A stretch of DNA of 64,000 nt. Origin: an uncultured Gammaproteobacteria bacterium. Lineage in GTDB: Bacteria > Patescibacteriota > Microgenomatia > UBA1406 > GWC2-37-13. The notes beneath the pieces are model-generated. The model saw only the letters and a program-made list of their open reading frames with translations, searched no databases and was not told where the DNA came from. Numbering within the stretch: position 1 is the first letter of the stretch; every line of letters begins with the position of its first letter. This document shows positions 8,957-59,379 of this stretch, piece by piece. Location of the stretch: NCBI GenBank assembly GCA_964433155.1, contig CAYSQE010000003.1, forward strand, positions 12,061 to 76,060. Direction: 5' to 3'. The position numbers and the translations under genes were made by a program.

Positions 8957-9035
8957 TTATTAGCTAGTAGTTCATAGTAAAAATAAAGTTGTCCGTCTAC
9001 TAACTACTCACTACAAACTACTAACTGATAAAATT

Positions 9036-9932
9036 ATGCCTAAGATTTTCATCATTACTGGTCAAACTGCAACTGGTAAAACAAAACTTGCTCTTAAGTA
9101 TGTAAAGAAGTATCGCGGAGAACTCATAAACTGCGATTCAAGACAGATTTATAAACACCTAGATATTATAACTGGAAAAGATTTGACCCATAAACACTGG
9201 CTTTACGACATGGTTGATCCTGAGGAACATTTTTCTTCTTATGACTTTAAAAGACTAGCTATGCCGCTAATAAGAGATATTTTAAAAAAAGGTAAGACAC
9301 CTATCATTGTAGGTGGGACCTATTTTTACCTTTTTCATCTCCTTTATGAGGTTGAAACTGAAGAAATTCCAGCAAATTGGAGGTTGCGCAAAAAATTAGA
9401 AAAGAATTCAGTTGTCGAGCTCCAAAATATCTATAAAACTATAAGTCTTCAATCGTTTAATCGATTAAACGCAAGCGAAAAAAATAACCCACAACGCTTA
9501 ATTAGAAAGATTGAAATTGCAATGTACTACCAAAGTCAGCCTGAACTTGTTTCAGGATCTGAAATCAGATTCCGAAATAAATTCGGAATGACATTAAATA
9601 GGAAACTCAACTTTCCCAACCTAGAAATCGGCCTTATCGGACTCAAATTCAAAGAAAAAGATGATCTGCGGAAAGCGATTGAAAAAAGAGTAGAGGAGAG
9701 ATTGCAGCTTGGCGCAATCGACGAGGTCAAAAAACTTCTAAAAATGGGCTATAAAGAGACCTCTCCTGGTCTAAAAACAATCGGTTATCAACAGCTAATA
9801 TTACACCTGAAAGGTGCAATTGATCTTGATACTGCAATCCATAAATGGATTAACAAAGAAGTCCAGTATGCCAAAAGGCAGTATACCTTTATGAAGAAGG
9901 ATAAAAACATAAATTGGCATGAGATAGAATAG
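9036..9932 (+). CDS. miaA: tRNA dimethylallyltransferase
   Basis: P-loop IITGQTATGKTKLAL followed by INCDSRQIYKHLDIITGK and PIIVGGTYFY. Confidence 0.85.
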   Translation: MPKIFIITGQTATGKTKLALKYVKKYRGELINCDSRQIYKHLDIITGKDLTHKHWLYDMVDPEEHFSSYDFKRLAMPLIRDILKKGKTPIIVGGTYFYLFHLLYEVETEEIPANWRLRKKLEKNSVVELQNIYKTISLQSFNRLNASEKNNPQRLIRKIEIAMYYQSQPELVSGSEIRFRNKFGMTLNRKLNFPNLEIGLIGLKFKEKDDLRKAIEKRVEERLQLGAIDEVKKLLKMGYKETSPGLKTIGYQQLILHLKGAIDLDTAIHKWINKEVQYAKRQYTFMKKDKNINWHEIE

Positions 9933-10305: not shown

Positions 10306-12213
10306 CTATCTTCGAAACAACTTCAAAAACGCCTCTTTGGGAACTTCTACCCGGCCGATCATTTTCATCTTCTTTTTTCCCTCTTTTTGCTTATCCAATA
10401 ATTTATCTTTTCGAGTTCGATCACCTCCGTAGAGTTTTTTGGTGACATCCTTGCGAAATGGTGCTATTCGCTCTGAGGCTATGATTTTTCCCTTATATTG
10501 TGCTTGGATTTTTACTTCATACATTTGACGAGGAATTAGTTCACCCAGCCTCTTAACCAAAGATTGACCTTTTTCTTGAGCTCTGGCTTTTGCTACAACT
10601 TCTGAAAATTCCTCTATTGGATCTCCATTGATAAGGACCATTAACTTATCGGCATCAACTACTCTATATTCAAGAAACTCCCAGTCAAGTGATGCATAAC
10701 CGGAGCTCACGCTTTTTAGCTTATCGTAAAAGTCTGAAATCATCTCTGACATCGGCATTTCATAGTAAAGTACGATTTGATTTTTATTATCCATCGTTAT
10801 AAATTTAGCTCGATAACTTTGAGACAGCTGCATAACATCACCAAGATACAGTTCTGGTGTAACAATCATGATCTTAACGAAAGGCTCCATAAATTCAGTT
10901 TTAGCTTCTATTCGATTTATCCGGTATTCTACCTGAGGAGGCGTCAATACTAAACTTAAATTAAACTCTCTTTCTAACCTTTCTCTTGCAACATCTGCGT
11001 GCAGTAATCCTAAGAAACCTACTCTAAATCCAGCACCTAAAGCCTGGCTGTAAACCGCAGAAAACTCCAGCGAAGAATCGCTCAGATAAAGCTTTTCAAG
11101 TGCTTTCTTCAAATTTAAATAATCATGCGTATCAGTTGGAAATACTGAGGCAAATATCATAGGCTTAATTCGTTTATATCCAGGCAGCGAATAGGTGTTT
11201 CTATTTCTAACAATTTCGTTAATAATTGTATCTCCGACGCGGACCTTGTGAATGTCTTTAAGATTCGTAACTACATAGCCAATATCTCCCTCCGCCAATA
11301 AATCTGTAGGTTTTAGGTCAGGTGTAAAATGTCCGACCTCTTTAATCTCAAATATTTCGTCATTTATGGCTAATGCAACATGTAGGTTTTTTTTAAATTC
11401 TCCGGAAAAAACACGAACAAAAGCGATCACTCCTCGATGTGAATCATAATAGGAGTCGAAAATTAGCGATTGCAATGATGTAGAGACAAAATTTTTTCGA
11501 AAGTCAGTTGTTTGAGCAAAGGAGCGAGGAAGCGACCCCTCGGATTCCGAGGATGAGCGAGGAGCGACTGGTTCCGACGAACGTCGGAATGTGAGTTGAT
11601 CTTGAGAAAAAATTTTTGTCGATATATTATAAGGAGCCGGAATTCTCTTAACAACAGCCTTCAATAAATTTTCTACATTTTCTCCTGTTTTTGCTGAAAT
11701 CTCAAAAACATCTACTTCATTTATCCCCAAAAAATCAACCAACTGTTTTTTTGCTTTCAAAACATCTGCACTGGGAAGATCTATCTTATTAATAGCTGGA
11801 ATTATTAGCAAATTTTTTTCCAGCGCTTTATAAGCATTAGAAATGGTTTGAGCTTGTATGCCTTGAGTTGCGTCAACTAACAGAATTACTCCCTCGACAC
11901 AAGCCAATGTCCTATCAACTTCGTAGGAGAAATCTACGTGTCCTGGTGTATCTATGAGATTCAAAATATATTTTGAATCTTCAATTTGAAATTTTAAATT
12001 TGAAATTTTAAATTTAAATTCCATTCTTACCGGAGCAAGTTTTATAGTAATGCCTCTTTCTCTTGAGATTGGATTTCTGTCTAATAATTGCTCTTCATGC
12101 GCTCCTTTTACAACCACTCCTGTCAACTCTAAAAAGCGATCAGCTAACGTAGATTTACCATGATCCACATGAGCAATAATGGCAAAGTTCCTTATGTTCG
12201 ATGTTTTTAACAT
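10306..12213 (-). CDS. lepA: Elongation factor 4 (LepA) carrying two in-frame insertions
   Basis: IRNFAIIAHVDHGKSTL, DTPGHVDF and NKID GTPase motifs, plus a LepA C-terminal domain. Extra segments are present at residues about 64-79 and about 198-243. Confidence 0.95.
   Translation of the reverse strand: MLKTSNIRNFAIIAHVDHGKSTLADRFLELTGVVVKGAHEEQLLDRNPISRERGITIKLAPVRMEFKFKISNLKFQIEDSKYILNLIDTPGHVDFSYEVDRTLACVEGVILLVDATQGIQAQTISNAYKALEKNLLIIPAINKIDLPSADVLKAKKQLVDFLGINEVDVFEISAKTGENVENLLKAVVKRIPAPYNISTKIFSQDQLTFRRSSEPVAPRSSSESEGSLPRSFAQTTDFRKNFVSTSLQSLIFDSYYDSHRGVIAFVRVFSGEFKKNLHVALAINDEIFEIKEVGHFTPDLKPTDLLAEGDIGYVVTNLKDIHKVRVGDTIINEIVRNRNTYSLPGYKRIKPMIFASVFPTDTHDYLNLKKALEKLYLSDSSLEFSAVYSQALGAGFRVGFLGLLHADVARERLEREFNLSLVLTPPQVEYRINRIEAKTEFMEPFVKIMIVTPELYLGDVMQLSQSYRAKFITMDNKNQIVLYYEMPMSEMISDFYDKLKSVSSGYASLDWEFLEYRVVDADKLMVLINGDPIEEFSEVVAKARAQEKGQSLVKRLGELIPRQMYEVKIQAQYKGKIIASERIAPFRKDVTKKLYGGDRTRKDKLLDKQKEGKKKMKMIGRVEVPKEAFLKLFRR
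11485..11620. repeat. In-frame palindromic insertion element with terminal inverted repeats (RPE-like) inside lepA
   Basis: TIRs GACAAAATTTTTTC (11485-11498) and GAAAAAATTTTTGTC (11606-11620). GC-rich core with palindromes CCTCGGAtTCCGAGG (11538-11552) and TTCCGACGaaCGTCGGAA (11572-11589). A related sequence lies at 51135-51204. Confidence 0.7.
11983..12017. repeat. Heptamer-periodic repeat (AATTTGA/AATTTTA, 5 units) inside lepA
   Basis: aatttga aatttta aatttga aatttta aatttaa, read directly. It encodes the extra FKFKISNLKFQ segment. Confidence 0.7.
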
Positions 12214-48972: not shown

Positions 48973-50271
48973 ATGATCCCCAGGTTGATTAATTTCGCAA
49001 AACGACCGACAAGTGTTAATGTCATTATCAATACCTTCGGAAACTACCTAAATGTATTTTTTACAGCTCTTTTCGCTCTCATTCTTGTCCGCATTTTGAC
49101 TCCTCCACAATATGGAGTTCTAAGCGTGCTTCTAGGTATCGCATATGTTCTAGCAAACATTCTCGACTTTGGCACAACAGCTACAATTTATTCTTATCTA
49201 CCAAATTTATATGAAAAAAAGACATACGAGCTTTATCGATTTATCAAAAGTACTTTCTATTATCAATCCATTTTTTCTTTTTTTGTTATCGCAGTTTTGT
49301 TAATATCTTTTCCCTTCTTAGATAAAGTTTTTTTCAAAACAGATGCTCCCTGGTCAGAGCTTGCTTTAACTTCGATCTCAGTTTTATTTTTAATCTGGCA
49401 AAATTTTCTGCAAAATATACTTTTTGCCGCAAAAAAATTTGTCAAGACAAATGTATATTTGAATATCGCCAACATCATTAAAACGCTTATTGTTTTTCTT
49501 ATGATTTATTTGAAAATTATCACAGTAGGATCGGTGATTTTTGTCTTTGGAATTTTAGGACCCGTCATATTTTTTTTCTTGCTTTTTTTAGAGAAGAAAG
49601 ATCTTGTCTCGATTTTTCTTAAGTCCGAAGTTAAACGAAGCGAATTTAGGTTTGGCTACACTTTGACATATTTCTTAGCTTCTCAATTTTTTAACCTGGG
49701 ACTTCGCATGGATCTTTTTCTTCTATCTTATTTCAGATCTAAAACCGAGGTAGGATATTATGGACTTTCACAAAAAATTATTTTAACGATTATTACTACC
49801 ATAGTTAGTATCACGCAAGTCTTATCGCCCTCATTTTCTAAGATAACCAGAAAATCAGAAGCGTTATCTCAACTTAAGACTGGATTCATGTATCTTTTAC
49901 TCCCTTCGGCACTCTTTTTTATTCTTTTTTTCACACCAAAGGAAGTCTATGATCTTTTTTTTACCGACAAATTTGTACAAACTGCACCTATAACACGGGC
50001 CCTAAGCTTACCTTTTGTGCTATATGCTCTCGGCAGCCTTCCTGTCTTATTTCTTTTATATACGGTCAAAAAACCCGTTTATATTTTAATCTCAAATGTT
50101 GTTTTCTTTATCATTTTAACCCTAGGATGTTATTTTTTAATTCCGAAGATGGGCGTCTTTGGCCCACCATACGCTATAGCTTTAGCCCTCATCGTTGCAA
50201 CAGGTATTCAAATAGTCGCCAGCATCAAGGAGTTTAAGAAAATGTTCTCACCCCGCTCCCAGACTTCATAA
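48973..50271 (+). CDS. MOP/Wzx-type polysaccharide flippase-like membrane protein
   Basis: About 12 TM helices. ATG 48973 is chosen because the ORF-track GTG 48871 would overlap the gmd start. Confidence 0.55.
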   Translation: MIPRLINFAKRPTSVNVIINTFGNYLNVFFTALFALILVRILTPPQYGVLSVLLGIAYVLANILDFGTTATIYSYLPNLYEKKTYELYRFIKSTFYYQSIFSFFVIAVLLISFPFLDKVFFKTDAPWSELALTSISVLFLIWQNFLQNILFAAKKFVKTNVYLNIANIIKTLIVFLMIYLKIITVGSVIFVFGILGPVIFFFLLFLEKKDLVSIFLKSEVKRSEFRFGYTLTYFLASQFFNLGLRMDLFLLSYFRSKTEVGYYGLSQKIILTIITTIVSITQVLSPSFSKITRKSEALSQLKTGFMYLLLPSALFFILFFTPKEVYDLFFTDKFVQTAPITRALSLPFVLYALGSLPVLFLLYTVKKPVYILISNVVFFIILTLGCYFLIPKMGVFGPPYAIALALIVATGIQIVASIKEFKKMFSPRSQTS

Positions 50272-51626
50272 TATATCCCCCTAAAATTTCTTGTTTTTTT
50301 CTTATTATAATTACTTTGTCGCAAAATCTTCGCATAGTCCAAACCATAAATTTCTGAGGTATAAGGAATAATAATTATTTCTCGATACTTTAATTTGGTT
50401 AAATCCAAAGCTCGTAAATCTCCAAGATTCAAATCGCTTCGATAATATTGAATTGGGTCAGAAGAGGAATAGATCATATAAATTTTCTTATCTGAAGGAA
50501 GGCTGTTTGCCAAGGACTTCCAATCCTCACGATGAAAGCCAGGAAATAAGAGATATAACAAAGAAAAACTGATAAAACCAAAAAATATGATTAATCGATA
50601 AATCGTATTTTTTTGTGCAAATGAAATCAAGACTGAAATAAGCGGAATAAGATAAATAAACCTAAAATATTGAAGTAGGGGAGTAAAAAAAGAAAATAAA
50701 ATGCCAAAACCCATTGAACCGATGATAAAAAATAAGATAGACCTCTGTTTCAATCCGCCTTTTAGGACAAAAAACCAGACGAATGCTGTCCAAATCCCAG
50801 CAACAGCCCAATACAGCAATTTGGGCTGAAAGCTGATTCGTCCAAAGGCAAATTTTAACGGGATGAGGAAAAGATTTTTTAGATTCGTAGTACCTAAAAC
50901 TTGTGTCCAATTTGGTACCAAGAGTAACTGTTGTTGAGCATTGACAAACTGCCGATAGACTAATGGCAGAAGAACTAATAACGAAGAAGAAAGCATTAAA
51001 AATGAAACAAAAAAAAATCTATATTGCTTTTTGTAAAGTAAATACAAAAACATAGGAATAATTAAAAAAATCGAGCCGTAAAATGTTAAAAAAGCCAACG
51101 AAATGAAGATGTTAAAAAATAAAATAGGTGAGGAGCCAAAATTTTTCGAGACTTTCTGTTTGAGGAGCGGAAGCGACGAGTTAAGTCGAGATAAAATTTC
51201 TGGCGACAAACCTAAATAATAATAGAGTGCGACAGTTAAAAAAAATGTAGCCATCATATACATTCTCGCCTCCTGTGAATAATAAATAATCAATGGATTA
51301 AAAAGAAAAAATGCCACAGCCCAAAAACTAAACTTTTCATTTTTTATTTTTTTACCAATCAGGTAGACAATCCAACCCGTAAGAAGTGAAAAAATAATTG
51401 ATGGAAATCGCAGGGCAATTTCAGAATAACCAAATAAATTTGTCCAAAATTTCATAGATAGATAATAGAGTGGGGGATGAAAATCATGAGGAGAGAATTT
51501 TGTGGCGACATCTAAAAAACTGTACTGTTGAACCACTCGTGCTGTGGTTGCCTCATCTAACCATAAAGATTGATTTAAAGATATAAGACGAATTAAAAAA
51601 GCGAAGACCAATAGAAGATATATCAT
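50208..51626 (-). CDS. GT-C fold glycosyltransferase (ArnT/PMT_2-like)
   Basis: First-loop motif SLWLDEATTA, then more than 10 TM helices. Start moved to ATG 51626 because the ORF-track N-terminus (to 51683) is the translated tRNA-Gly gene. Confidence 0.6.
   Translation of the reverse strand: MIYLLLVFAFLIRLISLNQSLWLDEATTARVVQQYSFLDVATKFSPHDFHPPLYYLSMKFWTNLFGYSEIALRFPSIIFSLLTGWIVYLIGKKIKNEKFSFWAVAFFLFNPLIIYYSQEARMYMMATFFLTVALYYYLGLSPEILSRLNSSLPLLKQKVSKNFGSSPILFFNIFISLAFLTFYGSIFLIIPMFLYLLYKKQYRFFFVSFLMLSSSLLVLLPLVYRQFVNAQQQLLLVPNWTQVLGTTNLKNLFLIPLKFAFGRISFQPKLLYWAVAGIWTAFVWFFVLKGGLKQRSILFFIIGSMGFGILFSFFTPLLQYFRFIYLIPLISVLISFAQKNTIYRLIIFFGFISFSLLYLLFPGFHREDWKSLANSLPSDKKIYMIYSSSDPIQYYRSDLNLGDLRALDLTKLKYREIIIIPYTSEIYGLDYAKILRQSNYNKKKTRNFRGIYYEVWERGENIFLNSLMLATI
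51135..51204. repeat. Second, shorter copy of the in-frame palindromic element (inside the GT-C gene)
   Basis: GCCAAAATTTTTCGAGACTTTCTGTTTGAGGAGCGGAAGCGAC aligns with lepA 11487-11536 (AAAATTTTTTCGAAAGTCAGTTGTTTGAGCAAAGGAGCGAGGAAGCGAC). The right end AAAATTTCTGGC is inverted relative to the left end. Confidence 0.6.
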
Positions 51627-51633
51627 AAATTTG

Positions 51634-51705
51634 AGCGGTGGAGGGGATTTGAACCCCTGACCTTCTCCTTGGAAGGGAGACATTCTACCGCTGAACTACC
51701 ACCGC
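51634..51705 (-). tRNA. tRNA-Gly (anticodon UCC)
   Basis: Reverse complement GCGGTGG-TA-GTTC-AGCGGTA-GAAT-G-TCTCC-CTTCCAA-GGAGA-AGGTC-AGGGG-TTCAAAT-CCCCT-CCACCGC-T folds as a cloverleaf. Anticodon loop is CT-TCC-AA. No encoded CCA. Confidence 0.9.
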
Positions 51706-58968: not shown

Positions 58969-59379
58969 TTATGAAGCTGGTCGTTTAAAATTATCCCAAG
59001 CTTTTGAAAGATTATACAACTGTCTGCCGGAAATGTCGTATGTTTTAATTAGATTATCAATTTGCTCTATATTAATGCTGTAAAGATCTTTACATTGCTC
59101 TAGGCTTACGATTGTTTCGTTACACTCTCCCATTGCGTCATCTAAGTATTTTTGAAATCCAGCTTTTTGATGACGTTTACCGTAGCCTTCAGCAATTAAT
59201 CTTGGAATTGACTTACATGATCTACTAAGTTGATCTTTCAAATCATACTTTTCACTTGCTGGAAGTAATGGAATAATTTTTTTCATCACAATTAACATTG
59301 CTTTATATGTATTTTGAAAAACGTTTAAATCTCTAAATGACGTAATTGGTTTTTTATTTATTTGATTATCCATACTCAT
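58969..59379 (-). CDS. Four-helix-bundle protein (23S rRNA intervening-sequence protein / Avd-like family)
   Basis: FRDLNVFQNTYKAMLIVMKKI...EKYDLKDQLSRSCKSIPRLIAEGYGKRHQKAGFQKYLDDAMGECNETIVSLEQC matches the family pattern. Confidence 0.7.
   Translation of the reverse strand: MSMDNQINKKPITSFRDLNVFQNTYKAMLIVMKKIIPLLPASEKYDLKDQLSRSCKSIPRLIAEGYGKRHQKAGFQKYLDDAMGECNETIVSLEQCKDLYSINIEQIDNLIKTYDISGRQLYNLSKAWDNFKRPAS

Follow-up and report, generated by a model that had tools for sequence, protein, structure and literature searches.

The lepA gene (elongation factor 4, EF4) of a Roizmanbacteria-like bacterium of the candidate phyla radiation (CPR) carries an in-frame palindromic element of ~141 nt at positions 11483-11623 (minus strand, LepA residues ~197-243) of the window, meaning here the whole 64-kb stretch of the source genome that was analysed. 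This element (called W, and its kind W-type) is very probably a copy of small non-autonomous palindromic repeats that populate Roizmanbacteria/Microgenomates genomes, being like MITEs (transposable elements of the miniature inverted-repeat type) in build and like Rickettsia palindromic elements (RPEs) in behaviour. L numbers denote loci or contigs of relatives and P numbers proteins; L081 is the contig of P0014, P0077 is the LepA of L109 and L110, and P0096 is that of L111.

The host gene (10306-12213, minus strand; 635 aa in the list of open reading frames, ORFs) is LepA/EF4 by its domain order (GTP_EFTU G domain, domain II, EFG_C, LepA_C) and by full-length similarity (residues 4-633, E = 3e-168) to the Aquifex LepA structure 2ywe. 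Close homologues (P0002 onwards) possess PF00009, PF03144, PF00679 and PF06421, and the top database matches are Candidatus Roizmanbacteria/Microgenomates EF4 proteins with 63-70% identity. In the alignment with 2ywe, query residues 4-195 pair with chain residues 3-186 and query residues 246-633 with chain residues 192-597, so that ~50 residues in the window LepA stand in for ~5. The linker affected, which lies between 'IPxPxx' of the G domain and 'ALIFDSYY' of domain II, is seven residues long in all outgroups and in many Roizmanbacteria, in line with the short canonical linker given in the initial annotation of this DNA. Relatives were sought among 185,579 species representatives, the source genome not being one of them; distant LepA proteins do not have the segment, which bears out the in-frame insertion between G domain and domain II that the annotation had proposed. 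Judged by these alignments, the W element is an insertion into a normally seven-residue linker, with the junction peptides ...IPAPYNISTK and ...NFVSTSLQSLIF.

The initial annotation placed all the sequence features of the element correctly. Its ~136-nt extent (11485-11620) was close to the 11483-11623 (~141 nt) set by the models: a family profile (nhmmer) matched at 11623-11483 with E = 1.8e-42, and a covariance model built on 12 copies from seven genes and run unfiltered over the whole window matched at 11479-11628, flanks included, with 168.7 bits. The ends of the element have the sequence GACAAAAATTTT... In gene orientation, the 5′ arm of the terminal stem is GACAAAAATTTTTTC (11606-11620, forward-strand letters GAAAAAATTTTTGTC) and the 3′ arm is GAAAAAATTTTGTC (11485-11498, forward-strand letters GACAAAATTTTTTC), both on the minus strand. 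Between them lie the two perfect palindromes that had been noted, also given here in minus-strand terms: internal hairpin 1, TTCCGACG-TT-CGTCGGAA (palindrome TTCCGACGAACGTCGGAA, 11572-11589), and internal hairpin 2, CCTCGGAATCCGAGG (palindrome CCTCGGATTCCGAGG, 11538-11552), the latter flanked on both sides by the direct repeat GAGCGAGGA(A)GCGAC (11522-11536 and 11555-11568, minus strand). The GC-rich patch seen in the otherwise AT-rich gene is real as well; the 72-nt stretch 11516-11587 has a GC content of 0.639, the maximum in the 64 kb (mean 0.353) and above that of both tRNA genes. The fold is likewise strong, the 136-nt RNA having a predicted energy of -38.9 kcal/mol compared with -24.6 +/- 3.1 in 200 dinucleotide shuffles (z = -4.6), none of which equalled it.

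Alignment of the 12 copies, whose mean column identity is 82%, gave with RNAalifold a terminal stem, two hairpins and two short helices, and standard pairs occupied 94.9% of the cells of this structure. Both partners had changed in 15 of the 28 pairs, as against 4.9 +/- 1.5 in 500 shuffles (none of which reached 15) and 0-6 in controls in which the 3′ partner was slid by 1-3 columns. The terminal helix formed by GACAAAAATTTTTTC and GAAAAAATTTTGTC (helix 1) has 12 pairs, of which eight are double-changed, with 95% of cells paired; in helix 2 (hairpin 1) three of five pairs show double changes. The stem of hairpin 1 varies yet stays paired (CCGAC/GTCGG, CCCGCC/GGCGGG, CCCGC/GCGGG), even among orthologous trxB copies, and that of hairpin 2 is CCTCG/CGAGG in 11 of 12 copies and CCGCG/CGCGG in L101. 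Compensatory changes have preserved the terminal stem and both internal hairpins. The pairs are nearly all Watson-Crick pairs, so that the palindrome holds on both strands, which fits insertion in both orientations; such pairing does not separate a role in RNA from one in DNA. No match to the W element at E ≤ 1 was found in Rfam 15, and over the whole window only two tRNAs reached the Rfam gathering score. An intein, an intron or a translational bypass was ruled out by the short length, the lack of an Rfam match and the in-frame, stop-free state of all copies.

W-type copies are spread over at least seven housekeeping gene families that are unrelated to one another; both orientations occur, and every copy is in frame and free of stops. 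Six carry the element forward and in one shared frame (lepA, trxB, gdh, tatD, tsaD and a coaD-like/DUF359 gene), and fmt carries it reversed. A six-frame peptide query with the W element retrieved thioredoxin reductase-type TrxB proteins (382-414 aa) containing STKIFSQDQLASRLSSGSVAPRSSSPNEGSLRRSLAQTTDFRKNFVSS at 65-79% identity, as well as the formyltransferase Fmt with the reverse-strand reading NFRGSQLFEQVSAEATPRIPRMNEARTVPTNVGMRVDLPRKF; solved TrxB structures have no such stretch, carrier TrxB proteins being ~45 residues longer there. A scan of metagenome contigs for exact matches to the hairpin-2 19-mer, which is blind to coding status, gave 13 matches; five were true copies, all of them within ORFs (TatD, TsaD and the cytidylyltransferase-like (coaD-like)/DUF359 protein), and the remaining eight matches to TCATCCTCGGAATCCGAGG were chance, coding for SSSESE or DSEDE in unrelated genomes. 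Viral contigs contained no match to the hairpin block; five viral matches to TTTTCTCAAGATCAACTC were the bare 18-mer only and were discarded. The covariance model found no new loci in the 1.07 Mb of relatives' loci scanned. Searching 1.84 billion cluster representatives (phmmer) with the 48-aa peptide returned one match, P0133, other carriers probably being hidden behind element-free representatives, and a profile search with an alignment of 11 peptides was uninformative, as it returned one 61-aa protein and missed known carriers. The window itself has no trxB, fmt, tsaD, tatD or gdh, and hence offers no empty sites for these genes. Separately, the element-carrying TrxB proteins (P0121-P0132) have a second insertion of ~35 residues, KSKNEKIKMTIENEKLEK-like and AT-rich in its coding sequence (residues ~303-343 of P0123), that is likewise missing from solved TrxB structures.

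Comparison of related loci gives signs of movement. The trxB contigs yielded further copies. L103, a 4-kb contig, has one copy in trxB and another in the adjacent gdh; in L096 and L099, gdh is empty and trxB is filled, the Gdh proteins of the three contigs being 77% and the TrxB proteins 86-90% identical. The empty gdh site reads GGA GAAAATTTT TCT and the filled site GGT AAAAATTTT [element] GAAAATTTT TCC, which amounts to a 9-bp duplication of a AAAATTTT-centred target that is itself palindromic. Such a duplication can arise either when a dimeric transposase makes a staggered cut or when a shared core is the site of recombination. The A/T part of the terminal arms of the W element is also a AAAATTTT-type palindrome, and the AAAATTTT core of its 3′ arm matches the duplicated gdh target. 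The positions first given for the terminal inverted repeats stand; at the gdh locus, however, their A/T part is duplicated target and not element sequence, and the outer arms may in part be derived from target or shell. A second pair of loci shows the lepA linker filled in L111 and empty in L112, whose LepA proteins are 79% identical.

The distribution within LepA points the same way. The only other LepA with a W-type element is P0014, which is 72% identical to the window LepA; the latter has no fewer than 12 nearer relatives, with 76-78% identity, whose LepA is free of the element. In a neighbour-joining (NJ) tree with variable sites masked, the window LepA groups with the element-free P0002 and P0014 falls inside a clade carrying a different, 68-nt family (see below), so that the two W-type lepA copies belong to different clades. 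In the comparison of the window with L081, nucleotide identity is 81% in the element and 68% in the rest of lepA, and third-position identity 76% and 43% (binomial P = 5e-6); this greater conservation of synonymous sites would be explained by constraint at the nucleotide level or by the youth of the element.

The family covariance model recovered one strong second match in the window, an 84-nt related element at 51129-51213 (minus strand; 30.9 bits, E ~5e-5), in frame in a PMT_2 glycosyltransferase ORF (50208-51683) with the peptide SPEILSRLNSSLPLLKQKVSKNFGSS; the Pfam PMT_2 match ends at residue 156, just ahead of it. Related copies, for which the initial annotation had proposed a search, exist well beyond chance similarity, in the seven gene families of other genomes and as this relative in the window; blastn and nhmmer searches of the window with the single element sequence had found no second copy. 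The 84-nt relative is without the two GC hairpins; in it the GAGCGAGGA(A)GCGAC block occurs only once and hairpin 2 is missing. Over 84 nt it shares 94% identity with the lepA-linker element of L109/L110, whose LepA (P0077) is ~65% identical to the window LepA, and by nhmmer it also matches the lepA-linker element of L111 (P0096). The element is modular, its outer arms and GC core not always occurring together. The two copies of L103 tell a similar story, with an almost identical core and differing arm subtypes, which suggests exchange of cores between copies or nested insertion.

The lepA linker has received other palindromes too. In Roizmanbacteria this linker is 7 to 52 residues long, and the protein database has lengths of more than 60; LepA as a whole varies from 565 to 663 aa. 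Most LepA genes, those of the closest relatives included, have no hairpin there; where extra linker DNA is present it is nearly always a near-perfect palindrome, of differing sequence. Examples are a 15-bp stem AACCCTCAGGGTTCC/GGAACCCTGAGGGTT in L003 and AGGGTCGGACCCTCC.GGAGGGTCCGACCCT in L017, L020, L031 and L059; in L027 and L036 the palindromes are nested, at -60 kcal/mol. A separate 68-nt family, AAGCTCGATACCGAAATTTTTTGACGGAAAACAACAAACCGCAAAAAATTTGATATCTTCGCTTT, occupies the linker of L009, L012, L013 and L021 and has four copies in 21 kb of L021, two in spacers right behind stop codons and two in lepA. An nhmmer profile of the 68-nt family did not detect the window element, and a kinship between the two would rest on similar arms and a shared site only. 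Since different palindromes occur at one linker, the linker is a recurrent landing site and not the home of one element; as read from these comparisons, it appears to have been hit repeatedly by many different palindromic families.

A mechanism can be proposed on this basis. The element would be moved, now or formerly, in trans by an enzyme encoded elsewhere, a transposase or recombinase acting by a staggered cut at symmetric AAAATTTT sites or by recombination at a AAAATTTT core. Only in-frame, stop-free insertions in tolerant surface linkers would survive selection, so that the copies appear as translated, disordered loops rich in Ser, Arg and Glu. The lepA linker would be one such tolerant site, struck repeatedly by different palindromic families. 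Cores and outer arms would be swapped when an insertion nests in the middle of an older palindrome, or through gene conversion among copies. The element would have no function for LepA. A broader proposal is possible but somewhat short of probable: that Roizmanbacteria/Microgenomates harbour undescribed modular palindromic mobile elements that insert at AAAATTTT-type palindrome centres (those of older elements included), whose arms and cores nest and recombine, that are tolerated, in essential proteins like EF4, TrxB, Fmt, TsaD, TatD and Gdh, as loops that are translated and disordered, that are one source of the many lineage-specific insertions of CPR proteins, and whose mover is an enzyme not yet linked to any MITE.

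Several observations weigh against mobility. The source 64 kb has one W-type copy and one 84-nt relative, so that copy number looks low. The target duplication is seen at a single locus, gdh of L103, and no clean duplication is readable at the lepA pair L111/L112; the high similarity of the two L103 copies could reflect gene conversion rather than recent transposition. The LepA tree is an NJ tree without support values. Among the 50 ORFs of the window that were scanned, none has a transposase or recombinase Pfam domain, nor did an autonomous element with matching ends turn up; the mobilising step is therefore inferred. Read-through of the element, for its part, is deduced from open frames.

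Of the other explanations, the least weak, itself improbable, is that selection maintains the palindromes where they stand, as a functional structure in RNA or DNA and not a parasite, such as a ribosome pause between G domain and domain II, a determinant of transcript stability or a processing site. Such a structure would account for the strong fold (z = -4.6), the compensatory changes, the conserved synonymous sites and the presence of many unrelated hairpins in exactly this lepA linker (L003, L017, L019, L036, L002). It would not account for the same sequence in seven unrelated genes and both orientations, at sites that are not of a common domain-boundary type, nor for the fact that most LepA genes, the closest relatives' among them, do without a hairpin there. 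The Watson-Crick pairs, moreover, are equally good on both strands, as a DNA palindrome predicts, and Rfam offers no known structure as a match.

A slightly less likely explanation is that the palindromes arose in situ, by fold-back priming or intrastrand template switching at insertion-tolerant sites, without transposition. Template switching is known from quasipalindrome mutagenesis to produce compensatory-looking changes without selection, near-perfect stems of unrelated sequence share the one lepA site, and the inverted repeats farthest out change with the locus, being GCAATC/GATTGC in the coaD-like gene, TCAGA/TCTGA in tsaD and GTCAAC/GTTGAC in fmt. What an in-situ origin cannot do is put the same 84-141-nt sequence into different genes of different genomes, as the 94% identity between PMT_2 and lepA copies and the 82% mean column identity of 12 copies in seven genes would require. 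The locus-specific outer repeats do suggest that fold-back or template switching may extend the arms.

It is very unlikely that the insert is a lineage-specific feature of the LepA protein, in which selection on the amino-acid sequence would have favoured a longer, functional linker. In its favour, the element has an open frame, and its peptide is ~72% conserved between the window LepA and P0014. The third positions, 76% identical in the element and 43% in the rest of the gene, show the opposite of protein-level selection, the closest LepA relatives have no such peptide, and the same peptide occurs in unrelated enzymes, with Fmt reading the reverse strand. The peptide is also predicted to be disordered.

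As to translation, the forward copies share one frame (...PRSSSESE...), which is stop-free in 12 of 12 copies; Fmt reads the reverse frame, in which the window copy has a stop and the Fmt copy Arg, so selection keeps the host frames open. In an AlphaFold model of the window LepA (alignment of 81 sequences, mean predicted local distance difference test score, pLDDT, of 79), pLDDT falls below 50 only at residues 55-57 and 205-243, and is 85-96 in the flanking G domain and domain II. The insert thus sits where the LepA fold tolerates it, in a predicted low-pLDDT interdomain linker between two confidently modelled domains, and the simplest reading is that the element is read through as ~46 presumably disordered residues.

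An artefact of assembly or amplification (a hairpin chimera) is hardly credible: multiple displacement amplification (MDA) or assembler errors can create palindromes, and P0133 resembles a chimeric ORF joined at an element, but the lepA insert is internal and in frame, is identical in the partial LepA of a separately assembled contig (P0001), and has related copies from many independent studies and assemblers (JGI, ENA, NCBI, Logan). P0133 itself (477 aa) has a flavoprotein N-terminus joined to a leucyl-tRNA synthetase C-terminus (KMSKS) exactly at the element copy and is either an assembly chimera across the repeat or a recombination product. It also has a ARYHVSRFNRNTPPQINGSLKSAKQVSS segment resembling the lepA-linker inserts of P0047 and P0086.

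Dispersal as a mobile palindromic repeat being the preferred reading, the closest parallel is that of RPEs, to which the initial annotation had compared the element. RPEs are ~150 bp long, are present in tens of copies and lie in many cases in frame in unrelated genes, where they encode a conserved peptide compatible with the host fold (PMC10969869). The W-type elements share with them a size of ~100-150 bp, a palindromic build with conserved secondary structure and dispersal in modest number, as well as the many in-frame copies in unrelated housekeeping genes, a conserved peptide that fits the host fold and the lack of a known transposase. They differ in host (CPR/Microgenomates rather than Alphaproteobacteria), in the palindromic AAAATTTT target with its 9-bp duplication (one locus) and modular arms and core, and in the reuse of one lepA linker by many families. 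Because the host is a Roizmanbacteria-like CPR bacterium, the element is not filed as an RPE; the comparison holds as an analogy of behaviour, and no homology is claimed or expected.

The elements may also be set beside the intragenic ERIC and large BOX elements, QMITE1 of Coxiella and the MITEs of Anabaena, which are small, have terminal inverted repeats and no transposase, and occur as intergenic and intragenic copies, some with open frames fused to host ORFs (PMC10969869). Like these, W-type elements have terminal inverted repeats (the 12-pair helix of the 12 copies, part of which may be duplicated target), are 84-141 nt long and contain no transposase gene, the only open frames being those of the host genes. 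Unlike them, they were found by the DNA scan exclusively inside ORFs (five of five true copies), with no parent insertion sequence (IS) of the same ends known and a target duplication at one locus only. The W-type element fits the structural definition of a MITE save in these last two respects, the parent IS and the duplication seen once. W-type elements are a new family of a known, MITE/RPE-like kind. The initial annotation was aware of no description of such elements for CPR-like genomes, and our search of the literature on palindromic or MITE elements in CPR/Patescibacteria, partial in coverage and so not proof, found none.

Repetitive extragenic palindromic sequences (REPs) are 20-40 bp long and extragenic, with a GTAG or CGTC head. 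REPs and bacterial interspersed mosaic elements (BIMEs) are mobilised by REP-associated tyrosine transposases (RAYTs, of the HUH type), can cluster or nest, and are targets for other elements. Like the W-type elements, they are dispersed, GC-rich imperfect palindromes that form hairpins (PMC3733652). The elements described here are 84-141 nt long, mostly intragenic and presumably translated, and no RAYT-like domain occurs in the 50 window ORFs scanned; the 141-nt size, the intragenic and presumably translated position, and the lack of a RAYT-like domain in the window led us to reject a REP/BIME identity. Yeast mitochondrial GC clusters and 'byp' elements are GC-rich hairpins scattered in an AT-rich genome, also inside protein-coding genes. 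A byp element breaks the reading frame and the ribosome passes over it, whereas the copies described here are all in frame and free of stops, a sign of ordinary read-through.

To our knowledge, there is essentially one textbook example of in-frame selfish repeats in essential genes, the RPEs. An independent second case, from the tiny and reduced genomes of CPR bacteria, would mean that the phenomenon is no oddity of Rickettsia; it may be a repeated feature of small, AT-rich genomes in which classical transposons are few. The elements inflate and diversify housekeeping proteins such as LepA (565-663 aa) and TrxB (382-414 aa), can seed assembly chimeras such as P0133, and, in CPR marker genes, can lead domain annotation, alignment and phylogenomics astray. 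In EF4, TrxB and other enzymes they serve as natural markers of where insertions are tolerated, and the sole clean empty/filled pair, with its duplicated AAAATTTT target, is a handle for finding the mobilising enzyme.

Elsewhere in lepA, the G-domain loop between LAPVRM and LNLIDTPGH (window 11950-12025) is a second insertion hot spot, with 28 residues in the window, a baseline of 15 and up to 53 in relatives. Its extra DNA consists of AT-rich repeats and a perfect 24-nt palindrome, AGATTCAAAATATATTTTGAATCT (11957-11980); L021 and L059 have an element of the 68-nt family in this loop. L012, L017 and L026 have an empty spacer upstream of lepA; in other genomes this spacer contains differing palindromes, namely the 68-nt family, GGGTCGGGTAACCCGACCC and ATGTAGGGAACAAAAATTTTTGTTCCGTACAT (L021 9918-9985; L013 and L059 just upstream of lepA; L022 2149-2180; L026 5255-5286 and 8146-8175). 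ATGTAGGGAACAAAAATTTTTGTTCCGTACAT also occurs dispersed, and its centre is AAAAATTTTT, as in the arms of the window element. In the miaA ORF (9036-9932), three adjoining small palindromes, CCTGAACTTGTTTCAGG, ATCTGAAATCAGAT and TTCCGAAATAAATTCGGAA, occupy window positions 9540-9600, where MiaA is ~11 residues longer than its solved homologue 3d3q; they may be another decayed in-frame element. The folD-miaA spacer (window 8957-9035) holds a long AT-rich hairpin of AGTAGTTAGTAGTT / ACTAACTACT units, probably an intergenic palindromic repeat or a terminator family, and a similar motif with a 14-bp stem occurs in L004 (18490-18532).

As to the genomic setting, the left 10 kb of the window is syntenic with L109 (release factor, L31, L10, L7/L12, gyrB, ppa, gyrA, folD, miaA, lepA). 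The region from ~12300 to 62800 is mostly one large glycosylation/polysaccharide gene cluster of GT2, GT4 and PMT_2 transferases, DegT aminotransferases, epimerases/dehydratases, methyltransferases and flippase-like proteins. A gene of the 23S rRNA intervening-sequence protein family (PF05635) stands alone among sugar-metabolism genes at 58969-59379 (minus strand); a member of this family also adjoins trxB in L099.

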